Assembly (NCBI GenBank): GCA_050084515.1
Contig: CM114271.1
Span: 49,848,001-49,912,000, forward strand
DNA length: 64,000 nt
Source of the DNA: Blasia pusilla
Taxonomy: Eukaryota
Reading direction: 5' to 3'
The position numbers and the translations under genes are program-made. The notes beneath the pieces are model-generated. The model saw nothing but the letters and a program-made list of their open reading frames with translations, had not been told where the DNA came from and searched no databases. This document shows positions 4,858 to 58,577 of this stretch, one piece after another (position 1 is the first letter of the stretch; each line of letters starts with the position of its first letter).

Positions 4858-7800
4858 TTGGAGTCTATTGTCTTGTTGTTATTTGTATTGGATATCCAAA
4901 TAGATATTATCATGAAACCACAAATGATCTCCCAAGGTCGATTGCCTTTTGGTCATCCACATCCAGTCTTAGCACACGATTTCAAATTATGGCAAAGAGA
5001 GCAGGTTTTGGCCCGCAAATTGGGGATTAAGATAGTGAGATGCCCTTGTAATCAATGCAAAGGGGGGACTTATCTATCTCTTCATAGAGTAGAAGAGCAT
5101 CTGAAAACGTTTGAACGCTTCCATCTTTTTTGCATCCCAAAGAGTAGACACAAGTGGGATTCCTCTGACGAGGAGTGGTCAATTCAAGATCAAGAGTCCT
5201 TCAAGGACCAAGCTGAAAAAATCATACACGAAGCCCATCGTGATCTTGACCCTAATTTGCCAAATGACACAACCCAGAGGCAACACTTGGATGTTGATAT
5301 TGATGTTCAAAAAATGTTGAGTGATATGTTTATGCAATATGATCACCTCCATAATGATAAGGATCATGAGGTAGGGGTTGAAGATAGTGGGAATGATCCG
5401 ATGGATAACAAAAATAATGTAGACATTGGAATTGATGATAATCAATTTCCAGAGCTTGCACAAGCATGCAACCCACTTTTTCCAAGGGAAAAGACATCCA
5501 TTTTAGCTTTTGTGATGTTGCTTTTCAATGTTTCTGCTACCCATAACTTACCAAACATTGCTCTTGATGAGATGTTGAAGCTGCTTGGTAAACTTGTTAT
5601 TCCAATAGATAACCATGTTCCTCCTAGTTACTACGCAGCCAAGAAGCTTATAGGAAAGTTTGGATTGAGTTATGATTCATATCATGCATATCCCATGGGA
5701 TGTGTGTTGTTCCGTGGGTATGTGAAAGATTCAACGATCTGCCCAAAGTGCCAAAAATATCGGTTTAAGCAAGTTGGGAAGTCATAAGTACCCTGCAAGG
5801 TTCTTCGCCATTTTCCCATCATCCCAAGGATGCTACGAATATTCAGATGTTTGACATTGTCTGAATTGTTGGTTTGGGCAGCAAGTAACAAGAGTAAAGA
5901 TGGGCTGGTTAGACATGCAGGTGATAGCAAAGTATGGGCTCATGTAGATCAAACTTACCCAGAGTTTAGTCAAGAATTGAGAAATTGTAGATGTGGGCTA
6001 GCTCTTGATGGGGTGAATCCATTCTCGGATAAATCCACTTCCTAGTCAACATGACCAGTATTGTTGGTAAATTATAACTTGCCTCCTTTGTTGCAAACAA
6101 AAAAATTCTTTGTTATGCTTGCACTCCTTATACCTGGTGAGGAGAGTGTAAACGTTGGTAACATTAACACTTATTTTGCCCCATTAGTGGAGGAATTTGA
6201 GGAGCTGTGGAGGGGAGTGGTGCTCCAAGATGTTCGAAGACCTTGTGGGCAGTGGGAGTTTACTTTTAAGGCGATGATTCTTTGGACTATCAATGACTAT
6301 CTTGCATTAGGTACAATCTCAAGGCAAATCCATGGTGGGAAGCTTGTGTGTACCACATGCGGGCCTCATGTAGAATTAGATTTCTCCAAGGAATGTGGCA
6401 AACCCATCTTTGAAGGTCATCGACGATACTTGCCTTGTACACATCCTTGGAGAGGTAGGAAATATGGCATCCATTTTAATGGTAGAGGGGAAACAAGGCC
6501 ACCACCAGAAAGAGTTATAGGTGAGGAGATTCTAGCTTGGGCTGCGGAGAAATTGGAATATGACGAGAGTGGGGGACGAGAAGATGGTCCTTCAGACCCA
6601 TAAAAAAAACAAGAGTCAAGAGGAGAAGTTTGCCTTATTGGCAAGTGTCCTAGAAACTTAAGTTTCCCTCGACCAAAAGTCTTATCAAGATTTGTTTTGG
6701 TTTCAAATTTGTCTTTGACGAGATTCCTTGATAAAAAATCAGCATCTTCTCATTCGCCATACCTTGGATGTCATGCACGTGGAGAAAAAAATTGTTGAGA
6801 ACTTAGTAAAGACAATATTTGGAATTAGAGACACAGTCAAGGTTAGAAGAGACATGGAGGCAAGAAGAGTTCCACCTCATTTGTGGTTGTAGTCGCATCC
6901 GCAAAGAGTATAAGGTCTTGTGAAATCTACTGCAGACTATGAAATGTCTCCTCATGAGTTGATGATAGTTCTTGGTAGAATTCAGGAATTAAAACTGCCC
7001 ACGGGGTATTGTGGTGAGTTGAGGAAGCATGTGGTTAACAAGAAAATGGGAAATATGAAGTCACATGACTACCATGTGTTGATTCATCAAATCCTACCTT
7101 ACTCTCTCCGTAGCCTCATGAAAAAGGAAGTTTGGATGACTATAATGGGGTTAAGTAGGATCTTTAGAAGTATATGTGTCAAAGTCTATGATCCTTCCTA
7201 ACTTGAAAGACTACGTGAGGATACCATTATCACCTTATGTCTATTCGAGATGCATCTTCCTCTTGCCTTCCTTGACGTAATGACCCATTTACTTGTCCAT
7301 TTAACATAGGAACTTGATATTTGTGGGCTAGTGGCTTGTTGTTAGATGTATCCAATAGAGAGAAACATGGGCACAATTATAAAGTACGTCAAGTCTAAAG
7401 CAAGACCAGAGGGTTGCATGTCAGAAGGGTATGTTAAAGATGAAGCCATGGGATATATCACTCAGTATATGAAGAGGTTCAAAGCTATTAGGATGCGTGT
7501 ATGGGATGAAGGCAAGGAAGATGGAGTAATAGGAGAGGAGTTGGAAGGGGCTGGAGTACCCATACTTCTCTCACGCAAGTTGCTACTCCTTGCACATCAC
7601 TACATTCTACATAATACAAAATCAATGGAAGTATGGCATAGGTGAGTGATTGCAGAATTGTTGTTGTGTGAAATTTATTGTTTGTTGTTTGTTTGAATCA
7701 GTAGTAAACTCCATGAGAAATCCTTACTTCATATCTTTCTCTATATCGGGTTTTTTTTCTGCAGGAGGTACAACTTGGAAAAACCCAACTTACCCTTTGA

Positions 7801-8559
7801 AGATTGGATTCACTCAGCTATGATCGCTGAGGCTAAGGGGAAGCCATTACACTTGATCCATTAGCATTTTCCTTTTCCATTCCACCTCAAGTAAAGGTGC
7901 TTTCATACAAAAGTATGAAAGCGTATGGAAACCATTACCGAGTAGAGCGACGGGATGGGGTAAATTCATTTACCACTTTTGATTTTGGCATAGGAGCTTA
8001 CTTTGTGGATGAGAATACAAGTCCATCCAATTGTGAATACTCTTATGTTGGAACCTTGATAGACATAGTCGCTTTTGATTATGGGTTGGTCGATCAACCA
8101 ATAGTGTTGATGAGAGGCAGATGGGTTAGGGCAGATTGGGAGTCCCCTAGAAAATCAACGAGAAGAGATGTTGAAGGCTTCTTGTTAGCCAATCTGAAGT
8201 CTTTCCTATCCAGTTTAGACCAACCCTTTGTTTTTCCATCTCTAGTGAAGCAAGTTTTTTTTGGCGATGCAAGTGAGGGAAGTGGGTGGAAAGTTGTATT
8301 GCGCAAGGAAGCTCACGCACGTCGAGTGTTTGCAGAGGATAGTGAACTGGATCACAGGGATAATGGGGATTATATTGGCTTGCGTGCTCCAATCAGCTTA
8401 CCATAGAGGATTCCTACAGTAAACACACTAGGAGCTATAGAATTGACAAACGAAGAACTAGAAGTAGCACGTAGGGATTTTGCAAATGTAATTCTAGTGC
8501 AGGTTTGTATAGAAGATACCTCATCAAGTGATAAATCTGAACATGAAAGCTTGGACTGA
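4858..8559 (+). pseudogene. CACTA TnpD/TNP2-like transposase pseudogene
   Basis: Motifs RCPCNQC, GLALDGVNPF, VNYNLPP, WTINDY, LPYW|HLLIRHTLDVMHVEK, KSHDYHVL, MYPIER, ARPEGCMSEGY, QPFVFPSLVKQVFF, WKVVL. Probable introns at 6645-6742 and 7642-7764; several in-frame stops. Confidence 0.92.
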
Positions 8560-9556
8560 AGAGTACATAGTTCTGAAGGTTGTTTTAGGTTGTTTCTTTA
8601 TTGATAACCTTGACGATCGGGGCTAGTCTATTTTTTTCCAAAGCAGATTGTGGACATGTGCTTATGGAATCCAAAAGGGAGTTGAGCTGATATAGAAGCA
8701 CTTTTCTCCATTGAAGGTTGTCGTACGCATACATATCGCTACACAACATAAATCGTTGGTCACATCTACACCACACAACACCAATCTTCTCCACACACGG
8801 GTCGATCCACACATGTACAAAAATCAACTCATACATATACATGGAGATCACACAACAAAAATAAAGAGGAGTAAAAACGGCCCACCCGGCCTAAAACTCC
8901 ACTCCTCAATCTACATCGCCATATCGAGCCTCGTCCACCCTGTGTTATCAAGGAATCCGGACGCTAGCACCCTAGTCCTATCTCACACACATACAAGAGA
9001 GGTGCTCCAACGGCCCAACATGAGAAAGATGGCTTAGGACAGCCACCTTCCTCTCTTATATAGGGTTGGGAAGAGCCAAAAGGCTCTTCCCCTAAAAATA
9101 GCCCTCCCCTTGGTAACCTGCGTGCACAGGTTACCAAGGATGGGTGACCTGGTCAACAAGTCACCCGGCTGTAATTAAAAGACCTCAACATGAAAGTTAT
9201 CAGAAATAACGTTCATGACACAATGGACCTATCCTCAACCTCATCCGACACCGTAGGACAAACTTACACTCAAGATAGTCCGCTGGCTCCTACGCCCTAT
9301 CCACGATAGATCTCGGCCTATCGGCTACTCAGATGTGACAGCTGTCGTGCGCATACATATTGCTACACAACATACATCGCTGGTCACATCTACACCACAC
9401 AACACCGATCTTCCCCACACACGGGTCGATCCACACATGTACAAAAATCAACTCATACATATACATGGAGATCACACAACCGCCCCTCTAGCTGGCAGTT
9501 GGATCCCCCAAACTCCAGATAGAAAATATCATATCTCTCTAACATGACCTACTACC

Positions 9557-12500
9557 CTATACACATCTCGGACACATCCATCGTCACGTGGGAACCACAT
9601 CAAGAGGGGAGGTCAGACATGACATATGCCACCCTCGAGAACAACCATCATATACCAACATGGTGGCTGCACCCTTAGCAGATCCGCACAACATAAACCT
9701 CAAGCCTACAAGTACCACTGCCAAGCTCGGATCCACCATCCCATCTACGTTCAAAAGATGACATGGCGCACAATTGCGCACATGATCCTTCCAAACCATA
9801 CCATCCCGTCCCTCCAACATGAGGACTCCGGTCGGTAATATCTTGCGCACACGTAGGATCGTGCGCCCTGCAGTGACATCTAGCGTCGTGGGTGGCGCGT
9901 ATTATAAATACACGTAATCTCTAGGATGAAACCTCATAATCCCTAGACGATAACCTCCTCCACGAATGGTCGCGTACCTCAATGTATCTCTATGTTGGGC
10001 AATAGCTAAGTTCTCAAAGGCCATAGGCATAACTCTACGAAAAACCTCTGCCCTTTGAGAACATGCTTGTACCTAAACATCTGGATCATTAGGATCTAAC
10101 ACCTCCGCCATGTCACGTCGAATCGCTGTAGGTAAATCTGGCTCTCTCCCAAAGAGAAAAAAGTACGGTGAGAATGACGCCAAGGATGTCTGCCGACTAA
10201 AGCGATAACCCATAGCCAACCATGGCAACTGTAGGTCCCACTCCCTCAACTGTCCCCGCTACAAGCCATACTTGCGCAATCCTCTCTTCACCGTCTATAC
10301 CACTCTCTCCGCCAACCCATCCGCCTCAGGATGATCTCTCGACGTGGTACGGTGATCTATCAGCGTCTGATCACACAAGGCCTGAAACTCTCCCTTGAAC
10401 TCGGTACCCTGGTCAGTCAACACCTCCGCCGGTGCACCAAAGTGACTAAGCACACAATCTAGAAACGCATAAGTTGTTCCTTCGCTCGCCTTGTCTGGTA
10501 GTGCCACCAACTCTATCCACTTGGAGAAATGCTCCACCATGACCAACACGTACCTATGATGACGCCCGGTCAATGGCAAAGGTCCCGCAAAGTCTAAACT
10601 CCACTGATAACCAAAACCCATAATCGGAAAAGGATGTAACTGCAGAGTGGGAGCATTGAAGGATGCTCGCACTCTGTCACATACCATATATCTAGCCACA
10701 AACTGCTGTACCCCAATATGCATGGTGCGCCACCAATACTAAACCTAGAGTAAGCTGTAAGTACGCTTTATTCCAAAATGTCCCAACTCCTCATGGGCAT
10801 GTCGCACTACACGTGCTCGCTGGGAAGGATGAGGTTCCATTTGTATCCTACCATCTCCCCATACCCGCAAAATATGAGTCCCCTCCCACCTGAACCTCTT
10901 GGCTCTCTGTAGGATCCGATCCCGCTCCCTAGCACTCACTGTACTTGCTATGACGCCAGTGCGCAAGAACTCCACAACCTCCACGTCATCATGGATATCA
11001 CAACCACCTGTCGCCTCCTCACTAACCTCCGGATCGAAACACTCATCATCCAACCCCACCACTGGAGTCATCACCTGTGACTGACCTGCCATAGTCAACC
11101 AACAAAGATACGCAGATGCATGCCAACCAGGCACCATCTCCTCATCACTCTCTCCGTGCCATCGAGCTCCTCTGTCGTCTCTCTAACTCGGACATGGGTT
11201 ACGACTCAACCCATCCGCATCTTGGTTCAGCCGACCTGGCCTATGAACCACCTCAAACTCATACTCCTGTAGTAATAGAGCCCACCTGGCAAGCTTTCCC
11301 GTAAGCTTGTCGGACTCCATCAACCAAACCTCGCTCTTAATCATCTCTTCTCCCGAGTGATAAGTGTGAAAGGGTTGCCGAATAAATAGCACCTGAAATG
11401 TGCCACGGCCCATACTGCAGCCAAACACTCTCCCTCATAGGAGCTGTACTTTGCCTCTGCAATGTTGTTCGATCGGCTCGCATAAGCCACAACGAACTCC
11501 CTCTCCTCGTCATCCCTCTGAGTAAGCACTACTCCTAGACCCAACATGCACCAATCCGTATGTAACTGGAATGGGGACCCCTAACCAATCTCTGTAAAAC
11601 GGGTGAGGACGTCAACCTGTCCTTGAGCTCCTAAAATGCTCGCTCTTGATCATCTCCCCACAACCAAACCTGATCAAGTCTCGTCAACAAAGTCAAAGAC
11701 TTTGCGATCGTACTAAAACCCTTGACATACCGTTGATAGAAGTTCGCCAGTCCAAGAAATGCTCGGACTCGACTCACATCTGTAGGGCGTGGAATCTGCA
11801 CAATAGCCTCTACCTTCGTCTGCTGAACGCCTAACCCACTCGGGTATATGATGTGTCCCAAGTACTCAATCTACTCTTGAAAGAATCTGCACTTGCCTGG
11901 ATGTAACTTCAGTCCATGTAACTGCAATCGCCGAAACACCTCCTCCAAGTGTTGCTCATGCTCCTCAACCGTCGAACTGAAGATAAGAATATCATCCATG
12001 TAACATCGTACAAAATCCAAGCCAGCCAGAATCCTATCCATCACTCTCTAAAACTCTACAGGCGCGTTCTTCAAACCAAATGGTAAGAACCGCCACTGAT
12101 ACAAGCAATCTCTTCCGAATCGATCTATCCCCCAGAAGGTTGTCTTCTCCCTGTCCTCCAATCTGATAGGAAGCTCATGATAGCCAGCACAAAGATCTAA
12201 AATACTGAAGATCTTTGCATGCCCTACCGCATCAAAGACCTCCTCAGGAGTAGGCATGGCGTACCGATCTGACCTCATCTGTTAGTTGATAGGACGGTAA
12301 TCTCCACACATCCGCCTATCCGTCCAATTGCCATACATATCCTTCTTCTCCGGCATGACTGTGGCATATGCATACTCCCTATGTGATAACTCCACAAGTC
12401 CTGCCTCCAACAAGTCCTGACTCCTGCTCTGAATCAAGGCTCGCTCCATATCAGAATACCTAGACCCTTCAGCGTACCTAAGTCTCTCATACTAAAGGCA

Positions 12501-15500
12501 AAAAAATTGACATGCCCTCTCAAAAACCTATGAACTTGCCGTCGCTCTCCTCCTATCAACTTGAGACCTATCACAGGCTCCCATCGTGACCTCACTTGGA
12601 GAGGACGCAACCTCCGGCTTTGGTTGCTTTGTAGCAACCCTAGCCACCTCCGCAACAGCCACTCCACTCTAACCTCCTACACCATGCTCCACATCCAAAA
12701 AATGAACATGTGCTACTCTAGCCGCTTTCGCACTCTCTGCTCGAACGACGTCCCAAGAAGTCCATGGGTGCCTATCTCTCCTTGTCTCGCCCCCAACCAA
12801 TGCCTGTACAGACCCTTTAGGCAATGGTCCAACTCGTGGATGTGACGGCATGGATGACACTCGCATCCGTCTCTGCTTAGCCATACCTAGGCTGACTATC
12901 CATGTGAGGCAGTTGAGGTCCATCGCCTGCCCCAACACCTATCTCCGGGATGCCTCAGTGATCCCTGGCACCGCCGTAGTACCGGTAGCAAACCCCATGG
13001 CACGCTCGCGCTCATCCCAAATCATGCTTGGCCCTCCTTGACGAAAGGCATGGGATGCTGGGAAGCTCACCAACGTAAGTAAGGCTGCTCTCAACTCCCC
13101 CATCCTATTCGCCATGGCCAACGGTGGTCTATCATCCCGTGTCACCACTTGAGATCGACGGCCTGAGCCCAAAATAGCATCCACTGTGAGATGTGGTGCT
13201 CTCTGGACTCCATCGTATGCTTGACTCAATACCTCTGATGGTATCAGGTTCGTCCACCACAGTCGTGGACGATGGGCACGTGATCCAACTCTTGCCGCAT
13301 CTAATAATATAGCAGGTCCCAACCAAGACCTCACCTGATACACACTCGTCATTAGACATGCACGAGTGTCTCCCAAAAACGGCACGTTCTCCAAGATGTA
13401 CGTTGGAGAACATGTCAGACTCTCTAGTTAGTGTCGTACTACTCGCAACATCTCCCAAAACATCCCTGATCTCGGATCTTGCAATCCAAATCCTCGGCTA
13501 GCTGATGAATGAACCTGACATGGCCATCCAGAAATCACCAAATGAATGGTGCCAACTCTATCCAGATCCTGCGCCCCCACCAAAGAGATGTCGGCGCGTA
13601 GCGTATGTTGATATCCCCGTATCGCAGATACCGGCAACAACTTAGGATACCTCTGGACCAATCTGGCCACGTGACGTAATGATACTCGCCGCGCGGTCTC
13701 ATCTCTCTCCAGATAAAGGTACTGATGCACCCGTATGCCCGCCTGCAATACTGCAGCCAATCCGGTGCTAATCCCTTCGAAGAGATCTAACACCCTAACA
13801 CCCTCCTCTAGGCACTACCACACAACGGGTGTGGTATCCACTCGGGTCAACATCTCCACTCCAAGAGCCCGATCGCCACGTGACTCTCGCTGCTTCGGGA
13901 TAAAAGCATGACTCCACGCCTGCCTCACGAGGTCGTTGGCACTCCTCTGTAGCTCTTGAGTCGTACCCCATAATGGTGAAGAGGTCTCGCTAACATGGGA
14001 AGAGACACCCGCCATGGCCAGTCTCTCCGTGGGACTATCCGCTACTGGGACATCCTCCGCATGTGTGTTCCCCTCCAACAACTCTCCTGGCCAACTAACA
14101 CTACCTGTGAAAGCCGCCAACGTGGTCATAGACTCGCCTCGTGATCGACCACCTGGTTCGGCAAACTGCACGGGTAACTGACTCATCCGGCCGTCACCTG
14201 ACCGCCATCTTGGTTGATAAGCAACGGTCTCCTCCTAGAAGTCAAGGATGAATCCTCGGGGATATAACATTGTACTCCCCACCAACACATCGAACGAGTC
14301 AGCTGGTGTCGTAATTGCACGTGTGCGCACCATAGCACTATCCGTCTCATGCTCTGGCAAGACTCTGACAACTATCTCCTGTCGAGTCATAGACTGCGTG
14401 GGTGACACGCCCCCAATCGAGGTGTGTATCTGGAAGGGACAAGGTTCAATGTCGGCCTTCCGTAACCCCAACGCTAAACACGCCGCCTTCGCTAACATCA
14501 AGGGTTACGCTCCCAAATCAAGTAGGACGCGTTGCGGGTGGTATACTATTCCCGTCGGACTAACCAAGCAAAATACTCCAACTCGGTTATTCAGTAACAC
14601 TACTCCATGTGTCACTACTGCTCGCTCTATGGCCGGTCAAGCTGGCATATCTACCAACTTCGCCGCCCCCGCATGCCATGACTCTGTGGGGAACGTCCCG
14701 AGCACCAGCTCCTCAACCTATGAACAAAAAGCAATCATCTCTCCACGCTCATACAATATGGCGGCCAACCGGAACACCTCAGCTGGTCCAAGTCCCAACG
14801 TCGCCAACTCTATGGCGGAAAATAGTGGAGTCTGACTCACTCTGATGGCCATCTCCAACACTATGGTCGACACTGACTCCACTCGAGCCGGCATAGGAGT
14901 TGTCACTCCAACTCCTCGTGACGTCGACGTAGGTACCTGAGCTGTACGCACCGTTGGTCGTCGAGGCACCATCGATGGTGTCTGTAGTGCCTCCGACAAT
15001 GTGAATGACTGTGGAACCCTGGCCTGCCGCCCATCGATCCCCTCTAGTGGGTCAATCTCAACTCCACCTCTTGGTGCCTCTCGTAGCACCCCGAGTCACC
15101 ACTGCAGCTACCTCAACCAGGGCTGCACTACACATAAACCCCAAACTGGCGAGATCCTCACCCGGGTCAGGGTAAGAGGTAGAAGTTGGAGTCACACTAG
15201 CTGCTCGCAGCTCCGTGTCTTCCCTAAGCTACATTATCGTCGTGGCAGCAATCCTCTGCTCCAACTGATCGATGCGTGAGAGAAGTGCTGGATTTGGTGC
15301 TCCTACTCCATCTCCTCTGGCTGGTGGTGGTCCTATACCACCACGTCCAGGAAGGACTTCGTGACCTCCTTCAGGTCAACCGCCCCTAGGCCCTCGTCCT
15401 ACCTCTGGAGGTGCCCCTCGGCGAAGGTTAAAACATCTATCCCTAGTGTGACCATATCTGTGGCAATAGTCACACTGGTGCTATGGTGGGGCCATCCTCT

Positions 15501-16629: not shown

Positions 16630-17855
16630 ACCACTACTACTGCTCGCACTACCCCGTTCTTCCGAACCCTGGAAGAACGCCGTGATGACAAACCCTGTCT
16701 CACCCGCTCAAGCACTCAAACTCACCAAGAGTCTCGCACACGCCTCACTAGCTCACCTATACTAACATCAATCCCGTGATGACATACCCGGCCTCACGCA
16801 CACTCAACACTTGGGCTCACCAAGTGCCTCCCAACTGACTCACCTAATGTAGCGACACTCTCTCAGGTCATACACGCGACTCCTACTCGGAAATTGTCGT
16901 ATATCCACCAACATGCTACACATGAAAAGAATCTACACTTGTCACCATCGTTGCACCCACCTAGCACCAGCTACTACCCGCTACCTAGCACTCTCAATCA
17001 CACACGACAAGTGCAGGAAAAGGGACTCGAATGGGTAACATGATCACGCCCTCCAACTTGCTGCACCGTCAACATGCACTCCTTCACGTAATATGATAAC
17101 CTCGACAACACAATACTCTCCTCGACCAACATGTCGATCCTCCCGTCAACAGATGCGGACAACCTCTCGGCATCATGCGCACTGCCCCTCCATCTTCAAC
17201 TCTCGCAACGCCCTGTCGCGGCCCAAAAACATCATATCGCGCAAACCTCTCCGTCCATCCCCACACGCGGCATGTAACTGACTCACCCTGGTTGGCTCCC
17301 ACCTACCATGTATGCCCTGTCCGACCACGTGAACATGATCTTGACCACATCCGGACTCTCAACCACGTCGCCATCCAACCACGTTCGATCCTACCACGTT
17401 GGAGGGGGGAAACCTGGCCTGTGGCCCTATGCGAGCCCCTTAGGCCCTAAATGTGCGGGGGGCTTGGCCTGCATCCCTATGGGCCTCCCCAACTTTTAGG
17501 GAGGGAGCAATAAATGATGGGGGGGGGGGGCGCCGCCGTAACCCTAGCCTTCGCGACCTAACCTAGCCGCCTTTACTTGATAGCCCCCCGACGGCTGCAA
17601 AACCCAAACCTGCCCTTTTCTTCTCTCTCCCGACACCCTCACTCGCGTACACCCGCCGCCCTACCACACACTACACTCGACTGCTGTCCCACGTCAATCT
17701 GTACCAGCAAAATCTAAGAAAAACAGACAGCGCTTCCCCCACGGCCTTTCGAACAAAAAATGACAAATACGACGCCAACCAACGTCTCCACGGGCTCCCG
17801 ACCAAGGCAACTCGTTTGCCTACCTGCAAACAACAAATTCCCACCAGCCCCTTGA

Positions 17856-17869
17856 CATCTTTCTCATGT
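17856..17869 (-). promoter_or_regulatory. Putative self-priming primer-binding site of copy 2
   Basis: Element-strand ACATGAGAAAGATG directly after A1 is the exact reverse complement of element-strand CATCTTTCTCATGT at 18044-18031, which lies about 25 nt downstream of TATATAA (18075-18069). Confidence 0.75.
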
Positions 17870-18345
17870 AAAAATAAAGAGTAGTAAAAACGGCACACCC
17901 GGCCTAAAACTCCAATCTTCAATCTACATCGGCATATCGAGCCTCATCCACCCTGTGTTATCAAGGAATCCGGACGCTAGCACCCTAGTCCTATCTCACA
18001 CACATACAAGAGAGGTGCTCCAACGGCCCAACATGAGAAAGATGGCTTAGGAAAGCCACCTTCCTCTCTTATATAGGGTTGGGAAGAGCCAAAAGGCTCT
18101 TCCTAAAATAGCTCCTCCCTTGATAACCCACAAGACAAAGTTACTAGGGCGGGTGACCTGGTCAACAAGTCACCCGGCTGTAAAAGACCTCAACATGAAA
18201 GTTATCATAAATAACGTTCCTGACACAATGGACCTATCCTCAACCTCATCCGACACCGTAGGACAAACTTACACTCAAGATAGTCCGCTGGCTCCTACGC
18301 CCTATCCACGATAGATCTCGGCCTATCGGCTACTTAGATGTGATA

Positions 18346-23121
<4,776 letters not shown>

Positions 23122-24423: not shown

Positions 24424-25563
24424 GTTTTAGGCCTTGCGTGATCAGGCACTGTTCGGCCACCGCACCACTTTGCGAGATCATCCTGACGTGGATTGACTAG
24501 CGGAGAGGTTTGTGCAGACGGTGAAAAGAGGACTACGCAAGTATGGCTTGCAGAGAAGTCACCTAGGAGATTGGAACCTCTAGTTGCCGTGATTGGCGAT
24601 GGGATACACATTTAGCAGGCAGGCATCCTTAGCGTCTTTCTCACCGTACTTGCTACTTTATGGCCGAGAGCTAGATTTACCTACGGCCATTCGTCGAGAT
24701 GTTTATGAGGTGTTGAACCTTGATAACCCTAATGTATGGATGTGAGCATGTTCTCAGAGGGTTGAGTTTTTTTGGAGAGTGATGCCCATGGCATTTGAGA
24801 ACTTGGCGATTGCGTAGCATCAGGATACGTTGAGATATGCGGCTATTCGGGGAGGTGATTATCGACCTACCATTCGGAGGTTTCATTAAGGAGACTATGT
24901 CTACTTGTAGCAGACGGCATCCATGACGTTGGATGTGAATGTAGGGCGCACCATCTTGAGAGTGCGTAAGGTTTTGCCATATGTTGTTCTCTTGTTGGAG
25001 GGACGCGATGGTATGGTTTGGAAGGATCATGTGCGTAACTGTGCGTCATGCCACCTTCCTAAGATTGACGGTACAGTTTATCCGAGGTTAGTAGTAGTTC
25101 CTGCAAGGTTGCGATGTATGTTGTGTGGTTATGTCCGTGGTGCAGCCACTATGCTAGTCTGTGATGCATGTTCAAGAGGATGGCATATGGCATGTTTGAC
25201 ACCACCTCTCATTAGGGTTCCTCAACGACGATGGATGTGTCCCAGATGTACATAGAGTAGGTAGTTCCAGATTTGGACTTGTGTCTATGACATGGATGAG
25301 AAGAAGGCGACTAACGATGAGGCCACATGAGCACCTGGTCTTTTTGCTCTTAGCGTCCGAGAGATGTATGTTATGGTAGGTAGGGATAGATGGCTATCTA
25401 GAGTTAGAGGGACCTAACTACCAGCTAGGGGGGCGATTGGAGATATTTTGGTATTTCTTGTTTCGTTGTTTGGATGTCATGAGTTAGCATGGGATTGTGC
25501 GTGTTTGTGTGCATGTTTGTTGACAGCGATGTATGTTGTGTAGCGATGTGTATGCGCACGACA
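24424..25563 (+). mobile_element. 3' part of gypsy copy 3 (INT C-terminus, PHD, PPT, single B repeat), split by the CACTA insertion
   Basis: Starts mid-integrase directly after the CACTA TIR (GTTTTAGGCCTTGCGTGATCAGG, compare 1961-1983). PHD in ORF 24923-25255; purine tract AGGGGGGCG 25427-25435; B 25436-25563 ending CGACA; no A repeat follows. Confidence 0.88.
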
Positions 25564-36718: not shown

Positions 36719-39679
36719 TCAGACGTTGGAAGGGGAGTCGTGGCCTGTGAAGTCATCCGTGTAGTTTTCGTACGGTTCTGACTCAGGAAAAGAGTCTCCC
36801 ACTCGGATTTCATCCATCAGGTCCACCAGTTGCGCCATTTTGGGGCGCTGCTCAGGGTCTGCTATCACGCAAGCCATGGCAATTTGGAGGAGAGTCACCA
36901 TCTCCTCCTCTATGTGCCTGTTGGACTTGAGCTCCACATCAAACACCTCCGCTGTCCACTCCTCTCTCACCACTGATTGCACCCATTGGGGAAGGTCAAT
37001 GCCTTCTTCTCCGTGCGCCAGTGATTGTTTTGGCTGACGACCTGTGTAAAAACCACTCATTCAAAAGCGTACTTCAGAAATACACACAATTTTCCCATAC
37101 ACCGAAGCCTCGTTCGATTGTCTGATTCTTGGCACTTCAATCGACACTGCTGTTGAAATGCGAATTACGGTCGACAAAAATGCAGTCTTTTCTCAGGAGA
37201 TGACGGTACAATTTGTACGATGGCGTTTTAGTTTCCATCACGGAATTTCGTGGCACGAGACCGCACAAGACACTCAAAGCTCGAAACAAAGAAGTCTTCT
37301 CACATTTTCGGAGTTCAAATCGCGTATTTGTTCCACTGCAGTTTCACAGTTCAGTAAGAATTCTTACCAGTCAAAAGCTCTAGCAGGAGAACTCCGAAGC
37401 TGTACACATCGGCCATCTGAGTGATGCTTTTCGTCTGACTATATTCCGGAGCTCGGTAGCCCGCGGTGCGCTGCGTTGCCATGGCGGGACTCATGAGATA
37501 AACCAGACCAAAGTCCGAAATGCACACCTCGAAGTTCTTGCCCAGGAGAATGTTGGTTGACTTTATATTCCCATGAAACACCTTCTCGAAATCGCACTCT
37601 TTGTGTATATAGGCAAGACCCGCGGCTACTCCCCGAGCGATGTGAACGCGGGAACTCCAATCAAGTGCACTTCGTCCAGGGCCTCTACTACCTGTGTAAT
37701 ACAAATCATCAATAGCTTGGCGTTCTCCCTGTGATCATCGAGTCCCTGGATAGGTAATGGCAAGAAGATTTGCAGAAGTGCTTCTATACGTCATACAGGG
37801 AAGGGAGCTCCATCCACACACACGACCAGATAGAACACCCTGTATTTTCAGACCGTTTCTCAAGAAAGAAATTAATGCAGAGTCGTGGCAGCAATTGTCA
37901 CTGACTTATTCTCACAAACATGAAAAATAGCTTAGTTCAGAATGACTTTGCTTTGTAATTGAATACGGCTGCACTGTTGAGAAGACGGTTCTTCAAAGCA
38001 TCGTATGGGCAACGGCAAACGCTAGCAGACATAACCATTCCCACGCTAATGATATGAGTGCTTTCTCCCAAGCCTGCTGTAAGTAACGCCTGTGAGGCGG
38101 CAATCGTCTCGTGCTCCTAAGGCATTCTCGAGGGCCTCCGCGATCTCGACCTGACTCGAGCTCCACATGAATCCGCTGTTGCCGAAGGACGGCTAGAGCA
38201 GAATTGGTGGACAACAACAACCGACATCAGACATTGGCACAAATCACGGGACAGCAAGTTGATGAACTCTCGGTTGGGGAACTCACCATGAAGCAGGGTG
38301 AAGAGGCTGTGATTCGTCATGTAGTCGTACACAAGAAGTTTTTCCTCTTTCGCATAGTAGTACGCCCGCAGTGGCACGAGATTTGGATGCCTCAGCTTTC
38401 CTAGCAACTCCATGTGCCGCTCGAAATCCTTCCTTCCAGGATCCTTGACGTCCCTCAGCCTCTTCACAACTACTACCACTCCGCTTTCTACAACTGCTTT
38501 GTAGGCGGTGCCGAAGCTGCCCTTTCCAAGCATCTCCGCAGACGCTCGCAGTAGTTCTTCCAAATAAAACCTTTGCGGCGCGTCTTCAAAAAAGATCAGA
38601 TTGGATGAGTCATCCTCCAGGCTCTGAATCGAAAGATGTGAGGACGATCGACTACCGTTCAACTTCCCGTCAACAACTCTGTTCGTGGGCTTCTTCTCGT
38701 CTGCATACCTGGGACTTCTCCTCCAGTAGTAAGCGAAGAAAAAGATAACGACCATCACAACGAGAGTATCTCCCACTACAATTGCAACTACTGCCACCGT
38801 ACTCAGTTTAATCTTCGTACTCTCTAGCACTGGCTCGATCGAGGGAGATGGTGACGGATTGTAGATTGGAGAGATCTCATCAGGGGCTTGAGCAGCAGAT
38901 GGACACGCAGGTGACAACGGCTGGCCGCATAACTCTGAGTTTCCAGCGAAAGAACTTGAGGGAAATTTGGACAAAGAGGCTGGAATTTCTCCACCCAGCT
39001 GATTCCATGAAAGGTTAAGAGCTCCGAGAACGTTACTGGTTATGAGAGGAATCCTTCCTGTGAAAGAATTGTTCTCCAGATGAAGAAGAAGCAAGGATGA
39101 TGAAGCATTCAGATCAGGGATTTGACCGGACAACTTGTTGACAGACAAGTCTAGATTCGACAACCGCCGTGCAGTCGACAAGAACTTGGGGGCGGGACCA
39201 GAGAACTGGTTGTTTTGTAGCCACAACTGCGCAAGACCTGTGCAATTTGACAAATCTGGGATTGCTCCCTTCAACGAATTGAAGGAAAGGACCAGCGTTT
39301 GCAGCTCGTTCAGTTTGCTCAATGTGTTCTCCGCAAACGTACCATTCAGCGCGAGATTGTTCAAGGTAATTTTACTCACACGAAACCTGCGGTTACATTG
39401 GATTCCTTTCCACTTGGAGATCGAGCCATTGGAACAAGGATCATCTCCAAACCAAGACTGGTTCAAAATACCATTCGGGTCAGCCGCCTCTTTGAAAGCA
39501 AACAGACCTTCGGCATCAAGAGTGAGATGCCGAGCGTCACAGTAGTTCAACAAGAGCAGAGCTGAAACCAGCCCAACAAGGACGAATTCGAACCTGCAAC
39601 CCATTCTGATAGAGGAATGCCTCGCACTGACTGAAGCCAACGGAGGACGCAACGATCGCCTGAAATCGTCCCTGCCCAT
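36719..39679 (-). CDS. Leucine-rich repeat receptor-like kinase, LRR-III type; exons 39679(or 39604)-38287, 37691-37368, 37041-36719
   Basis: Signal peptide, W..DPC..WKGIQC cap, about 5 LRRs, [13 protein letters not shown] helix, [68 protein letters not shown]. Two phase-1 GT-AG introns. Confidence 0.95.
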
Positions 39680-42600
39680 GGAGATTAAATTGATAGCGAG
39701 CTCGAGCTGAGGGCTACAGTCCTCACGAAATGAAGCCGTTGCCAGTCAGGGGAAATGCCTCGATTCAGTCGTGAGAAGGTTTGCATTCTAGTCTTGTGAC
39801 ACCTGCGCATCCAACAGCCGAGCATCAAGATTCCTGACCATCATCTACCTGCAGCCACATTGAACTAACTATTCACGCTTCAATTAGATTCTAACATTTT
39901 GAAATCTTGTCCGGCCGACTACCGACGAGTAGTACGGACGAGAACTACTTTAACGCTAGCCACTGTTACTACGTCTACGTCTTCGGCGGAGCTCACAAGC
40001 TGCAAAATGCTTCTCCAACTTCAACTTGTAGTAACATATTATCACCTTCAGTTCCACCACTCTGCACCTGCAATCGCAATGGGTCTTTAACTCTAAAGAC
40101 ATCCTGCCCGCAATCGGCTCGAGATCACTAACGGTTAGAAATCTTCCTTTCCGCAGCGTTCAGTTGTCACCTGCGACCAATAGAACTTACAAAAAATTTC
40201 AGAGCCCACGAAGCTATGAGTGAGATCTCGCCTTCACGGACGACTGCTCTCTCTGACGATGTCCGATGTCCATGTTGTAGCAGCTGCGTGCAACTACAAG
40301 AGTGATAAAGCACTTCTTCGCTTCCCGCGCATTTCCCATCCCCTGTTCGTCCGTACTCATCGTCTTCTCCCCTTCTTTCCTGCCGATCTCAACCTCGAGT
40401 GCAGCCAATTCGTCGAGTCATCTCAAATTCGAGCTTCCGCTATTCATCACAGTTATCCAGGCTCCGACGACTATACAACCGCGGTTGGTCTCACCGTCAA
40501 TTATAAACTAATTCTTTCTGGCTCCCGGGGTACTACCGGCTACTTCATGAGTCATTCCCGGAGATAACGTCGATCTCTCCCTGGAATCAGCCGTCTGTCC
40601 ATCAATCCTCTCGCACTAATTTACCCACCTGGTTCTCCCGGGGAAAACATTCCTCTCCGCATCACACGAATACATAGTCTCCGTTCGGGAATCGGGAGCT
40701 GAACCTATAGAGAACAGGCAAATTGTACGGGTTTCGATGGAGTTGGTCCAGTCCAATGAGTGAGCTGAATTTTGCTGCTTTTCCCGTCTTGGGGCTCATG
40801 TATGGGGAAAGAGTCCGAAAGACCAGCCGCTAAGAGACCCCTGTCTTAAAGAGGTTGGCGCACGTGGCACGGCTGAATTCGCAGTAGTTTTGCCACGTAA
40901 GGGAGTCTTCGTTATTTTTCCGTTGCTAAAGGCCTCATGATACCATCCGAAGGCTGGTATCGGCGGATTTGAATTTCGGGCGACTTTGAGACCGTTGGTG
41001 GTGCATCCGGGGTTCGAGGGTCGGGTTTGCGCGATCGTCGCGACTTGCGCGTTGTCGCGACGTGGAGTTCCTCTCCAACGTTCGTGCCTTCGCCCTCTGC
41101 CACGACGTCTATCCAATCCACGTTGCTTTACTTCTCAAGTTCTTATGGGGATGGAAAACGCGACTTTTTCTCGAATAGATTATGATCCTGTGATTTTCTT
41201 TTCAATCGTATTATGCATTAAAACAAGGTTTTACAGATATTATTAGAAACACATGTCACGTTACAATATCATTATTAATTATTTAAGAGTATGTTGGGAC
41301 TAGTTAGCATGCCTGCACACGAAAAGGATTTTTTCATAATTTATAAATTTTCATTTAAATCTTTTAATATAATTTTTTAATCTTAAAATAATAATATTTT
41401 TAAATTTTTAAATCACGTAATTTTTTAATTAAAATTTAAGAAATAATATCGAACTCTCTTATATAATTTCATCCCTCCATAAGAGTTAAAACAATATGTA
41501 TTTTTCTTACCAAAGTAACATTCATTAATTAAATCACTATTTAATTTTAATTAATGAAATATTTTCCCTTTTTATTGAAATTAATTTTCCTTTCCAAAAA
41601 TATCAAATTTTCATTAGTATGATTCTTTTTAAAACTAATCATGTTTTTTGTTTCAAAATTTACACATAAATTTTACTTTTTAAATATTTAAATAATAATA
41701 ACATTCCACTTTTTCTAAGTAATTTTATTCCTTGAGTTAAATAATACCCCATCCCCTAAGTAATCTCAATCCTTTAATAAAGTTTAAAAAACACGTATTC
41801 CTCCCATCAAAGTGATACTTAATAATTAATCTTGATTAATAAATTTCTCTCTCTCTTCCATTCAAAATCATTTTTCTTTCGCATCACGTGTGAATAAAGG
41901 GAAAAACAAAATTTTGTTGTTATTTTGTTTTATCGTATATTTAGGATCGCCCATTATAATATAGATATTAGTAATGACTCTTTAAGAACATAGGAGGTTC
42001 TTCTTAAACGCTCGATTTCTCCGATCCATTAATTCTCCATTACTAAAAAACCTTACTACATCCTCCAACAATCCCATTTTTCCTGCCAATATGTGACCTT
42101 AAGGGGAAAAATTAATACCATGGTGTTATTTTGTCTTACAATGTCATTTTTTTCATGTAGAGTCTGTCATTATAAGATAGATTAACTCATAAGGTCCATG
42201 GGATGTTTGGTTTTAAATGGTTATTTTCAATTTAAAATTATAAATAAATTTTACTTTTGGGATTTTTTTGCAGGCTCAATGTTGGAAAAATATTATAATA
42301 TTGTTGGAGGATAAATTTTCCAACTATGTTGTTGACAAGTATCCACCTATAATGTTGACAATTGATATCAAACATACTAGGGTTTGATTTTCTCACCATT
42401 TCCCATTTATATATTTCTTTTGTTTATTTTCATTCATATTATAAATCCAATTTCTATCATATTTTAAACAATATGACATAAAATTAATTTTAAAAATACA
42501 ACCAAAAAATATTCTTACCTTTTGTAAAAAAAAGATTGTTGTAGTAAAAGCTAGACAATTAAAGGAATTGAAATCTATAGAGATCAAAAAGTAAACATGA

Positions 42601-56282: not shown

Positions 56283-56298
56283 CTCATTCTGTCTTTGT
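56283..56298 (-). promoter_or_regulatory. Putative self-priming primer-binding site of copy 4
   Basis: Element-strand ACAAAGACAGAATGAG directly after A1 pairs at 15 of 16 positions with element-strand CTCATTCTCTCTTTGT at 56474-56459 inside A1. Confidence 0.72.
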
Positions 56299-57883
56299 AA
56301 AGTAAGATCCAATGTCTCTCTACACCATCTCACACCATAGCTCTCAAAGGTGTGCACTCTCTCTCATGTCAAACCAAACCCACTCTCCTAATGAGAGGCT
56401 TGGGTTTCACTCAAAAGGCAAGGGACCATAGCTCCGGTGCCTCATGCCAAGAGGTTCAACAAAGAGAGAATGAGCTCTCAAGCTCTCTCTCCTTGAGGTA
56501 TACCCCTCCCCTCTCCCAAGCTCTCTCCATGGTAACCTATTCTCCCAAGTCACCTCCTTGGCTCTTGACCTGATGTAGGAGGTCAAGGGCCACTTATCAA
56601 AAATAGAAAGTTGATCATATACTCAAATGGTACTTACCTAAAATAGTAAGTTCCTCAACATGGCTCCAAATGAGCCGAAACGAAGGGGAAACCTGCTCTC
56701 TCAGGTTTCTTGGGGCCTTAGCACGTCATCCTTGACCTATTGAGCGTGTCCTCCACTGCTCACAAAGGCGCTCTACTAGATCTCACCGATCTATCCAAAA
56801 AGACATGATATAGTAGATTGGATCGCCTCAAAAAAAAATAAAATTTGATGACCCAAAAAGTTCAAGTAGGCATGATTCTTCGAAGATCTTCCTTTCCCTA
56901 GAATCAGCATTTTTCAGGAATTATGTCTAAAGAATGAGTGATGGCATGAAGGAATAGTTCCTACAACCAACCAATCTCTAGATGATCCTACCCTAGAAGT
57001 CAGCTTTAATTTTCTAAAACCGATCATATGTTTTGAGGATGATTCTAGAGAGAAGCCATTGGTTACATGACTTTTTTCATGCAATTGATTAAATTCTTGT
57101 AAGATTATGTAGTTAATGATTGCTTAAATGACCTCCATATCATGCAACCTATTATTTGGTTGCATTATATCCACATTATATAGTTGATAATTTTTTGGAT
57201 TAATATATAGGAAATTGATTGATTATAGGGAAAAGATCCTCCTCCCAAATTAAACTAAAAAATTTAAATTTTAAAATGAAATTGGAGATGAATAGTATAT
57301 AGATAGGGGGAACTAAAAAGAGACGTGATGAATCTTTTCAAAACTTGTACAATCAATAGCTTACTAATTGATTAAAATTCCAAGAACTAAATAGCAATAA
57401 AAAAGTAATGAAAGAATTGAAATTTAATCTATTCCTTCTTCTTTTTCATTCTCTGTTTAGCTTAGTATAGGAAAAAATAATAATGTGAAAGAGGCTTCAC
57501 ACATGGCATGAGGAGAGAACTTGACAAAAATATACTAACACGCTCGATAGTATAATTGGGAAGAGGGGTTAATGTAACAGCTTTCTCTAAATGGATCTCT
57601 TTATGTTATTATGTGAATTTGGAATTGATGAGTATAATCTCAATCCCTACAAGATTCATAATAAAAGAACTTCTTTAAGGTGTTCTCCTTTTCAAATGAA
57701 AAAAAATCAAATCAAAATTTGTTACTTAGACTCGATTATATATAAATACTTATATACAATTTTTTTCCAACTTAAGGGATCCCTTATTAACTTTTTCTCA
57801 ATTGAAATTTTTAGAAATGATTTTATTGAATATTTTCAGATCCAACAATTCATTGTGGTACCGACCATTAAACTAGTCTAATT

Positions 57884-58313
57884 TGTCACATCTTTTAGGA
57901 TAGACTGGTGAGATCTAGTAGAGTGCCTTCAAGGATACTAGAGGAAAAGCTCAAGAGGTCGAAGATGATATTTTGAGGCCATGGATAACTTGAGAGAGTA
58001 GGCTTTCCCTTCGTTTTGACTCATTTGAAGCCATATAGAGTAACTTACTATTTGGAGTAAGTTACTATTATTAGTATAGTTGACTTTCCACTTTGGGGAA
58101 GCCAACTATACTAATACATAGTCTCCTACAGCATGTCAAGAGCCAAGGAGGTGACCTGCGAACATAGATTACCGTGGAGAGAGTTAGGGAGAGGGAATTG
58201 GGTATACCCAAAGAGAGGGAGCTTGAGAGCTCATTCTCTCTTTGTTGAACCTTTTGACATAAGGTAGTGGAGCTATGATCCTCCTTGCCCTGTGCGTGTA
58301 AGCCAAGCCTCTC

Positions 58314-58397
<84 letters not shown>

Positions 58398-58577
58398 GTG
58401 TGCACCGTGGAGAGACCATTGTTGTGAGAGTGTTACTTGATTTATTGGAGATATTTTGTTACTTATGGTGTTGATGTTTGGATGGAATGAGTCAGGATGG
58501 GATTGTGTGTGTATGTGTGTGTGTGTGTCTTAGGTAATGACGATGTATGTTGTGTAGCGATGTGTATATGCACGACA
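57884..58577 (+). mobile_element. Solo A-B unit (solo-LTR equivalent) of the copy 1/3/4 subfamily
   Basis: TGTCACATCTTTTAGGATAG...GCACGACA, collinear with 3103-3745. Flanks AATT (57880-57883) and AATC (58578-58581) form a 4-bp TSD with one mismatch. Confidence 0.88.
58317..58395. repeat. (GA)n microsatellite inside the solo unit
   Basis: Pure GA run at a position where the other copies have only a short GAGAGA. Confidence 0.95.

Follow-up and report, generated by a model that had tools for sequence, protein, structure and literature searches.

Probable self-priming by the element's own RNA in split-repeat Gypsy-DNMT3 retrotransposons of Blasia pusilla

The window analysed here is a stretch of 64,000 nt of Blasia pusilla DNA (GenBank assembly GCA_050084515.1, contig CM114271.1, positions 49,848,001 to 49,912,000; coordinates below count from its first base), and our subject is the retrotransposon copy numbered 2 within it. 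This element occupies 18345-8719 on the minus strand and is a Ty3/gypsy element of the Gypsy-DNMT3/PHD clade with split repeats (A-internal-B-A-B). Its parts follow in the order A1, primer-binding site (PBS), internal region, G-rich tract, B1, GC, A2 and B2, and A1 and A2 match over 17870-18343 and 8857-9338. A1 starts with TATCAC in copy 2 and with TGTCAC in the 29 other loci of its family (family 1), and its 3′ end is TTTT. Since TG stands at the start of A and CA at the end of B, these are not two ordinary long terminal repeats (LTRs) with a PBS after a CA end. The repeats and the signals within and beside them are:

18346..18349, minus strand: target-site duplication on the left, GCCT; the right one, 8718-8715, reads ACCT and differs at one base
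17870..18345, minus strand: repeat A1, 476 nt, 94.3% identical to A2 across 476 aligned bases
18069..18075, minus strand: putative TATA box TATATAA, at the same place in 30/30 family-1 loci
18031..18044, minus strand: candidate self-primer CATCTTTCTCATGT, the reverse complement of ACATGAGAAAGATG
17856..17869, minus strand: candidate PBS ACATGAGAAAGATG, adjoining the A1 end
9481..9492, minus strand: polypurine-tract-like GCTAGAGGGGCG, immediately 5′ of B1
9343..9480, minus strand: repeat B1, 138 nt, ending in GACA, 95.7% identical to B2
9337..9346, minus strand: B1/A2 palindrome GACA-GC-TGTC, with both integration ends head to head
8857..9340, minus strand: repeat A2, 484 nt, with the second copy of the TATA box, hairpin arm and primer segment
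8719..8856, minus strand: repeat B2, ending in CA and abutting the A2 end without a gap

The first-pass annotation had described the 14 nt that follow A1 (17869-17856) as the exact reverse complement of 18044-18031, and all 14 of the 14 positions indeed pair. A1 ends at 17870, so the pairing begins at the first base outside the repeat, and the 3′ base of the primer segment pairs with the first base past A, which is the geometry required for minus-strand priming into A. The claimed spacing of about 25 nt from TATATAA was also found, position 18044 lying 25 nt after the last base of the box and 31 nt after its first. Nor does a TGG-type tRNA PBS follow A1, as had been stated: the first TGG stands at 17846, 23 nt in and not at the edge. 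A match of 14 nt was reached by none of 1000 dinucleotide shuffles of A1 and by none of 3000 other internal start points (maximum 10 in both cases), which excludes chance as the source of the 14-bp pair. Self-priming is called from at least 10 bp of complementarity starting 0-5 nt after the 5′ repeat; here there are 14 bp at offset 0.

Comparison of the PBS with host tRNAs yielded no match beyond 5-6 nt among 66 genes with 19 anticodons, a partial set that holds no tRNA-Met. Two chromovirus families of the same genome served as negative controls of the tRNA type. Their PBS starts with TGGTATC, which we take to be of the tRNA-Met type, and their longest self-complementary runs are only 5-6 nt.

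We then compared the pair across four families, the first three from this genome and the fourth from metagenome contigs (reverse transcriptase, RT, 40-50% identical, with the same repeat layout and methylase, and mostly with PHD). Family 2 is represented in the window by copy 3:

56283..56474, minus strand: family-2 signature; PBS 56298-56283 pairs with 56474-56459 at 15/16 positions

In family 1 the pair is perfect in 22 of 30 loci, and all 30 pair at no fewer than 13 of 14 positions when G-U is counted; 755 genomic copies carry it in perfect form. Family 2, with PBS ACAAAGAGAGAATGAG, pairs perfectly across 16 bp in 21 of 30 loci and across at least 15 in all of them, and 1076 copies are perfect across 14 bp. 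This genome thus holds more than 1800 copies with a perfect pair. For family 3 (PBS ACTCAAAGAACT), 10-12 of 12 positions pair in all five of its own copies and in all four metagenome relatives, one of which (L236) shows double-sided changes at positions 2 and 5. Nine of ten family-4 elements pair at 9-12 of 12 positions and the remaining one at 7. Four copies in which a free search chose other spots (L236, L240, L270 and L313) were re-anchored at the A end and their best partner was taken within a 35-55 nt range, a choice that slightly favours high counts. L285, which lacks a true repeat pair, and L281, whose LTRs are ordinary and whose PBS is of the TGG type, were left out, and the near-copies L265 (of L264) and L308 (of L306) were not counted.

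The PBS letters differ between families, 10 of 12 columns being variable, and the pairing is nevertheless retained: each primer pairs with its own PBS at 12/12 positions, and crossed between families at 4-7/12. The longest runs are 14, 16, 12 and 15 in the four families, each reached by 0/1000 shuffles. Furthermore, the distance from the primer end to the PBS is 157-163 nt in families 1-3 (136 in one copy), although A itself varies from 349 to 520 nt; in family 4 it is 112-124 nt. Our results indicate that reverse transcription in this element is probably primed by its own RNA. The earlier suggestion of a self-priming group thereby gains support, both from the covariation across families and from the lack of a match in the tRNA set.

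Which bases would act as primer depends on the transcription start and on how the leader folds. Three further features of copy 2 bear on this:

18053..18068, minus strand: upstream arm that forms a hairpin with the primer segment (z -4.0, 0/200 shuffles)
18025..18030, minus strand: predicted stem 5′ arm TGGGCC, following the primer 3′ end and pairing with 17943-17938 in folds
17934..17943, minus strand: predicted stem 3′ arm GGCTCG + ATAT, the ATAT competing in folds with the PBS for the last four bases of the primer

The predicted +1 follows the spacing rule between TATA box and transcription start. In 12/12 copies the first T of the TATA-like box is followed, 30-35 nt on, by a pyrimidine-A step, which leaves a primer of 12-14 nt (12 nt for family 4 if the A end is placed at the commonest joint). 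In copy 2 the pyrimidine-purine step CA at 18044/18043 makes a +1 at 18043 likely, which would give a 13-nt primer. In folds started from the predicted +1, the primer-PBS duplex is favoured in 7 of 12 copies (0.68-0.99). Stems following the primer also occur, with changed letters, in families 2 and 3, and there too the stem extension vies with the PBS for the 3′ end of the primer; in family 2, at about +100, it is almost a full decoy PBS. The hairpin of arm and primer has z -3.7 in family 1 and -2.8 in family 2, is present in family 3 and is lacking in family 4. The arm, at 18053..18068, would be missing from the start of an RNA that begins near 18043 and retained in A2, close to its 3′ end. 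Arm and primer region together span 18068-18031 and, in A2, about 9054-9017 on the minus strand, and the arm is itself PBS-like. One may speculate that in families 1-3 the upstream arm masks the primer copy in the 3′ repeat and so avoids competition for the PBS.

Several observations weigh against self-priming from the predicted 5′ end. In several families the pairing reaches 1-5 nt upstream of the predicted +1, for which reason the primer length is uncertain and the start may lie slightly earlier. RNA reads on 17501-18400 amount to 122-154 per run and run in both directions across all of A; those examined (three runs and one contig set) are mostly 90-95% alike and form no pile-up of starts near 18044. 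The duplex is disfavoured in 5 of the 12 folded copies (0-0.34), family-2 folds are won by an internal PBS look-alike, and the stability of the 264-nt leader does not exceed that of its shuffles (z -1.0). With the upstream arm in the transcript the duplex probability falls to 0.0 in family 1, and the model consequently needs a start downstream of the arm. As to conservation, the 30 loci each of families 1 and 2 were chosen by likeness to the query, and coupling inside family 2 is weak: one position shows nine primer-only changes, seven PBS-only changes and one double change, where about 0.07 double changes are expected by chance among some 1090 copies. Finally, every copy examined is decayed; the one with the most similar A repeats (L062) has a mismatch in the pair, and L091 has a broken 3′ part.

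In two of the RNA runs (X3 and X4), reads from one other locus share with the window just the 43 nt at 18007-18049, including the primer segment, between unrelated flanks.

The repeat joints bear on the cDNA ends. For family 1, the first 100 of 548 A2/B2 joints were counted by hand, and 77 of them consist exactly of the A end followed by the B start. Seven are same-length substitutions, four have an extra T, five an extra G (the last base of the polypurine tract, PPT, or a doubled first base of B) and four are of other kinds, while three carry the first PBS bases (A once and ACA twice; the two ACA joints, 1.3 kb apart, are perhaps one event). Among 30 family-2 joints, 17 are exact, 11 have +A, one +AT and one +GGAGCG, which is PPT-like; with B starting with A, the +A could be an untemplated base. 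On a tree of low resolution these family-2 variants show no grouping (10 changes against a shuffled mean of 10.1). This fits joints formed anew by the joining of a PBS-defined and a PPT-defined cDNA end, and the 77 exact joints, with few PBS- or PPT-like extras, are in keeping with the proposal that self-priming sets the cDNA end at the end of A. A G-rich tract like GCTAGAGGGGCG also precedes B1 in families 2-4.

At the other joint, between B1 and A2, the pattern CACGACA-NN-TGTCA occurs 2528 times in the genome, as compared with 13 occurrences of the reversed control, and its core is present in family 4 too. Among 100 listed joints the 2-bp spacer is mostly GC, GT or AC, the mix expected if GC decayed through C-to-T changes on either strand. 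Twenty stretches were retrieved for relatives, of which 13 are whole elements and seven have no A1 within reach; in 13 of the 13 complete ones a perfect 4-bp target duplication lies outside the A1 start and the B2 end.

Rearranged forms of these repeats were also seen. A solo A-B unit, TGTC...GACA, at 57884-58577 on the plus strand with flanks AATT/AATC, is the solo-LTR equivalent of the group, and L111 holds a family-1 A-B unit inserted into a family-2 A. In L074, L079, L080 and at 25436-25563 of the window, the 3′ end consists of internal region and B only, without A2-B2, a form that either B1 × B2 recombination or insertion from a one-repeat circle would give. L057, L090 and L103 contain tandem joints (internal-B-A-PBS-internal) in which B+A resembles one ordinary LTR between two internal regions.

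These observations can be assembled into a mechanism. RNA polymerase II would start about 31 nt past the TATA box, at 18043 or a few bases earlier. The first 12-16 nt of the RNA would fold back over 160 nt onto the PBS after A, the observed pairing serving as primer duplex. By analogy with Tf1, the RNA would be cut, presumably by the element RNase H, immediately past the paired stretch on its 3′ side, which would free a 3′ OH at 18031, from which minus-strand DNA would begin at the last base of A. The plus strand would begin after the G-rich tract before B1, giving a linear cDNA of the form BA-internal-BA, whose ends, A-end to B-start, would be joined into a circle with the joints actually observed. 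The integrase would then cut the internal GACA-NN-TGTC palindrome and insert the DNA with the 4-bp duplication seen at integrated copies. A BA-internal-BA circle opened at the B/A palindrome yields the integrated order A-internal-B-A-B.

It is possible, if on balance somewhat doubtful, that self-priming arose in a green-lineage Gypsy clade, reaching from streptophyte algae to bryophytes and including chlorophyte relatives, separately from its origin in Tf1/sushi and in TAR, and was coupled there to a circle life cycle in which the integrase opens the internal GACA-NN-TGTC palindrome and never uses the cDNA ends. An attachment site inside the repeat would then sidestep ragged or primer-blocked cDNA ends, such as would arise where, as in Tf1, the primer stays on the cDNA. 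Were this so, it would be a natural eukaryotic element integrating normally by the circle-junction route, and a hint at how split-repeat elements are primed.

Four other explanations of the pair were weighed. The primer might come from another copy of the segment, either in A2, at the 3′ end of the RNA, or in a short RNA released from the hairpin of arm and primer, so that priming would be tRNA-free and yet not Tf1-like. A2 does carry the same segment, families 1 and 2 have a stable hairpin and family 3 has one too, and the pairing reaches a few bases upstream of the predicted +1. We consider this unlikely: family 4 keeps the pairing without such a hairpin, in each of the four families the segment has the position expected of a 5′ end, TATA +30-35, and the 3′ end of a polyadenylated RNA cannot prime. 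Alternatively, the pairing may belong to the structure of the leader and serve packaging, translation or strand transfer, with another host RNA or protein as primer. The competing helices around the segment in our folds resemble a regulatory switch, and priming itself is inferred. Yet in families 1-3 the pairing sets in with the base just past A, and in family 4 with the most frequent A/B joint. A purely structural helix would not be expected to keep to the cDNA end, and no other PBS is seen after A1; this explanation, too, is unlikely. Still less probable is that the pair acts on DNA, like the internal complementary region of DIRS, guiding an end-joining jump into a circle. The repeat layout is that of the split-repeat DIRS-order elements (PMC5890265), but the partner lies 160 nt inside A, away from the element ends, the elements have a Gypsy RT, a PPT before B1 and a DDE integrase, and priming would be left unexplained. 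Lastly, priming by a host tRNA or by half of one, with the self-complementarity as a side effect, can be practically dismissed, partial as the tRNA set is, given the short matches, the lack of TGG at the repeat edge, and the four host RNAs that four PBS would require, each by chance also present in the element's own repeat. Self-priming from the RNA 5′ end is thus the explanation we retain.

The coding region of copy 2 agrees with a Ty3/gypsy element, although every frame is interrupted by stops:

12939..13814, minus strand: C5 cytosine methyltransferase domain (PF00145 on 13428-13814), stop-broken
11183..12676, minus strand: RT/RNase H region, limits approximate, in open reading frame fragments (tblastn match of 304 residues), broken
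10295..11182, minus strand: DDE integrase, zinc-binding H2C2 and rve core (PF17921, PF00665), broken
9584..9901, minus strand: integrase C-terminal region with PHD finger (PF00628, E 0.0035)

RVT_1 and RT_RNaseH were found on the open frame of a relative, a relative's methylase domain has DNMT3A as its best solved-structure matches (E 4e-6), and the PHD finger PF00628 scores E 2.6e-10 in window copy 3. The domain order (methylase, RT, RNase H, integrase, PHD) is not that of copia elements, in which integrase precedes RT. Gag and protease had no Pfam match; a relative does show a DSG motif and a stretch resembling a zinc knuckle. None of the PHD- or DNMT-bearing homologues listed has a chromodomain (PF00385, PF24626), whose place is occupied by the PHD finger. 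No tyrosine recombinase was matched in the frames scanned, an rve integrase being present instead. PAT and Ngaro are split-direct-repeat tyrosine-recombinase elements; unlike this class, the elements studied here have a DDE integrase, TG...CA ends and 4-bp duplications.

The closest named RT homologues are from Marchantia (75-84% identity), which means that a model plant is at hand, followed by Closterium, Klebsormidium, Calypogeia and Haematococcus; a chromovirus RT from this genome shares 87-89% identity with proteins of Riccia. Such kinship points to a liverwort as the probable host. In quick trees with SH-aLRT supports, computed on a set without Tf1, Tf2 and Tcn1, the RT of the clade (SH-aLRT 100) is separate from 15 plant and algal chromovirus-type rows (SH-aLRT 95). 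Three Klebsormidium rows (P0031, P0064 and P0092) fall inside the clade by RT. A scan of IMG/VR gave 64 loci at 28-41% identity, of use as outgroups only. In a PF00145 search for further families of this genome, 26 of 30 loci were nearest family 2 and four matched no element.

A first look at the genome returned 5347 C5 methylase candidates, nearly all examined ones sitting inside these elements and many retaining the PCQ motif; this transposon-borne load of DNMT3-like domains is very large for a land plant. Elsewhere in the window, CACTA-like transposase fragments (PF02992) lie between copies 1 and 2 (4858-8406, plus strand), and the only clear host gene seen is an LRR receptor-like kinase frame at 38117-39745 on the minus strand. 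Long AT dinucleotide-type repeats occur at 20094-20270 and 58317-58395, the second within the solo A-B unit. L311, an unrelated Gypsy-like contig that is circular, has an end (6500-7347) that looks like a repeat whose second copy lacks an intron-like stretch; it has no chromodomain-like end.

Our results offer a probable priming mechanism for the Gypsy-DNMT3 elements with DIRS-like repeats, which had been described and left unexplained, and would add to the lineages with tRNA-free priming one that is distinct from the sampled plant chromoviruses. They also assign a sequence position to each cDNA end, and with that the circle-then-cut model for split-repeat elements can be put to the test. An LTR finder that requires twin TG...CA LTRs together with a tRNA PBS would probably misread elements of this kind. 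In the open literature (subscription journals and Repbase reports lying outside this coverage) no report of self-priming was found for this clade.

Self-priming has so far been proven in fission-yeast elements. The RNA of Tf1 anneals to the PBS by its first 11 bases and is cut by RNase H between bases 11 and 12 (PMC7175516), and like priming has been proposed for Tj1 of S. japonicus (PMC4600332). As in Tf1 and Tf2 (Schizosaccharomyces pombe) and Tj1, the PBS after the 5′ repeat pairs here with the predicted RNA 5′ end, there is no tRNA PBS and the enzymes are those of Ty3/gypsy. Unlike in those elements, the duplex is longer (12-16 bp), split repeats replace the two LTRs, the PBS-defined end has no CA and would not be an integrase end, DNMT3-like and PHD domains are present with no chromodomain, and the mechanism is a predicted one. 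By all the sequence tests run the element would work like Tf1; its repeat layout and the lack of a chromodomain set it outside the Tf1/sushi group. Of the LTR elements of plants, 12% are likewise predicted to prime themselves, the groups concerned being Tcn1 and TAR (PMC6317226). The plant Tcn1 chromoviruses and the TAR (Houba/Osr-1) copia elements show the same complementarity, at least 10 bp at an offset of 0-5 bp (PMC6317226), but both have ordinary LTRs, and the present clade stands apart from the plant chromoviruses sampled.

The A-coding-B-A-B layout was described before for KnitGypsy-Dnmt3 of Klebsormidium nitens, which shares with our elements a Gypsy Pol with a DNMT3-like C5 methylase, and for the split-direct-repeat SymbioDIRS-Dnmt3 (PMC5890265); such a layout implies integration via a circle. 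The main text of that paper, as far as available, makes no mention of priming, primer binding or Marchantia, and in comparison with KnitGypsy-Dnmt3 the group reaches thousands of copies here, in a land plant. A 2026 preprint names the group 'streptophytes (Gypsy-DNMT3)', the word 'priming' being absent from its accessible text (10.64898/2026.05.21.726589). Troyka was considered as a match and rejected, since its CG...CG ends and 3-bp duplications do not fit. As for the integration step, HIV-1 integrase is able to cut the palindrome of the 2-LTR circle junction (PMC1905944; cf. PMC1180852), and here too a DDE integrase may cut an internal palindrome of two head-to-head ends. In retroviruses this is a side reaction at ligated cDNA ends, whereas the palindrome of the Gypsy-DNMT3 elements forms part of the repeat that is reverse-transcribed, contains a spacer of 2 bp and is seemingly the normal route.
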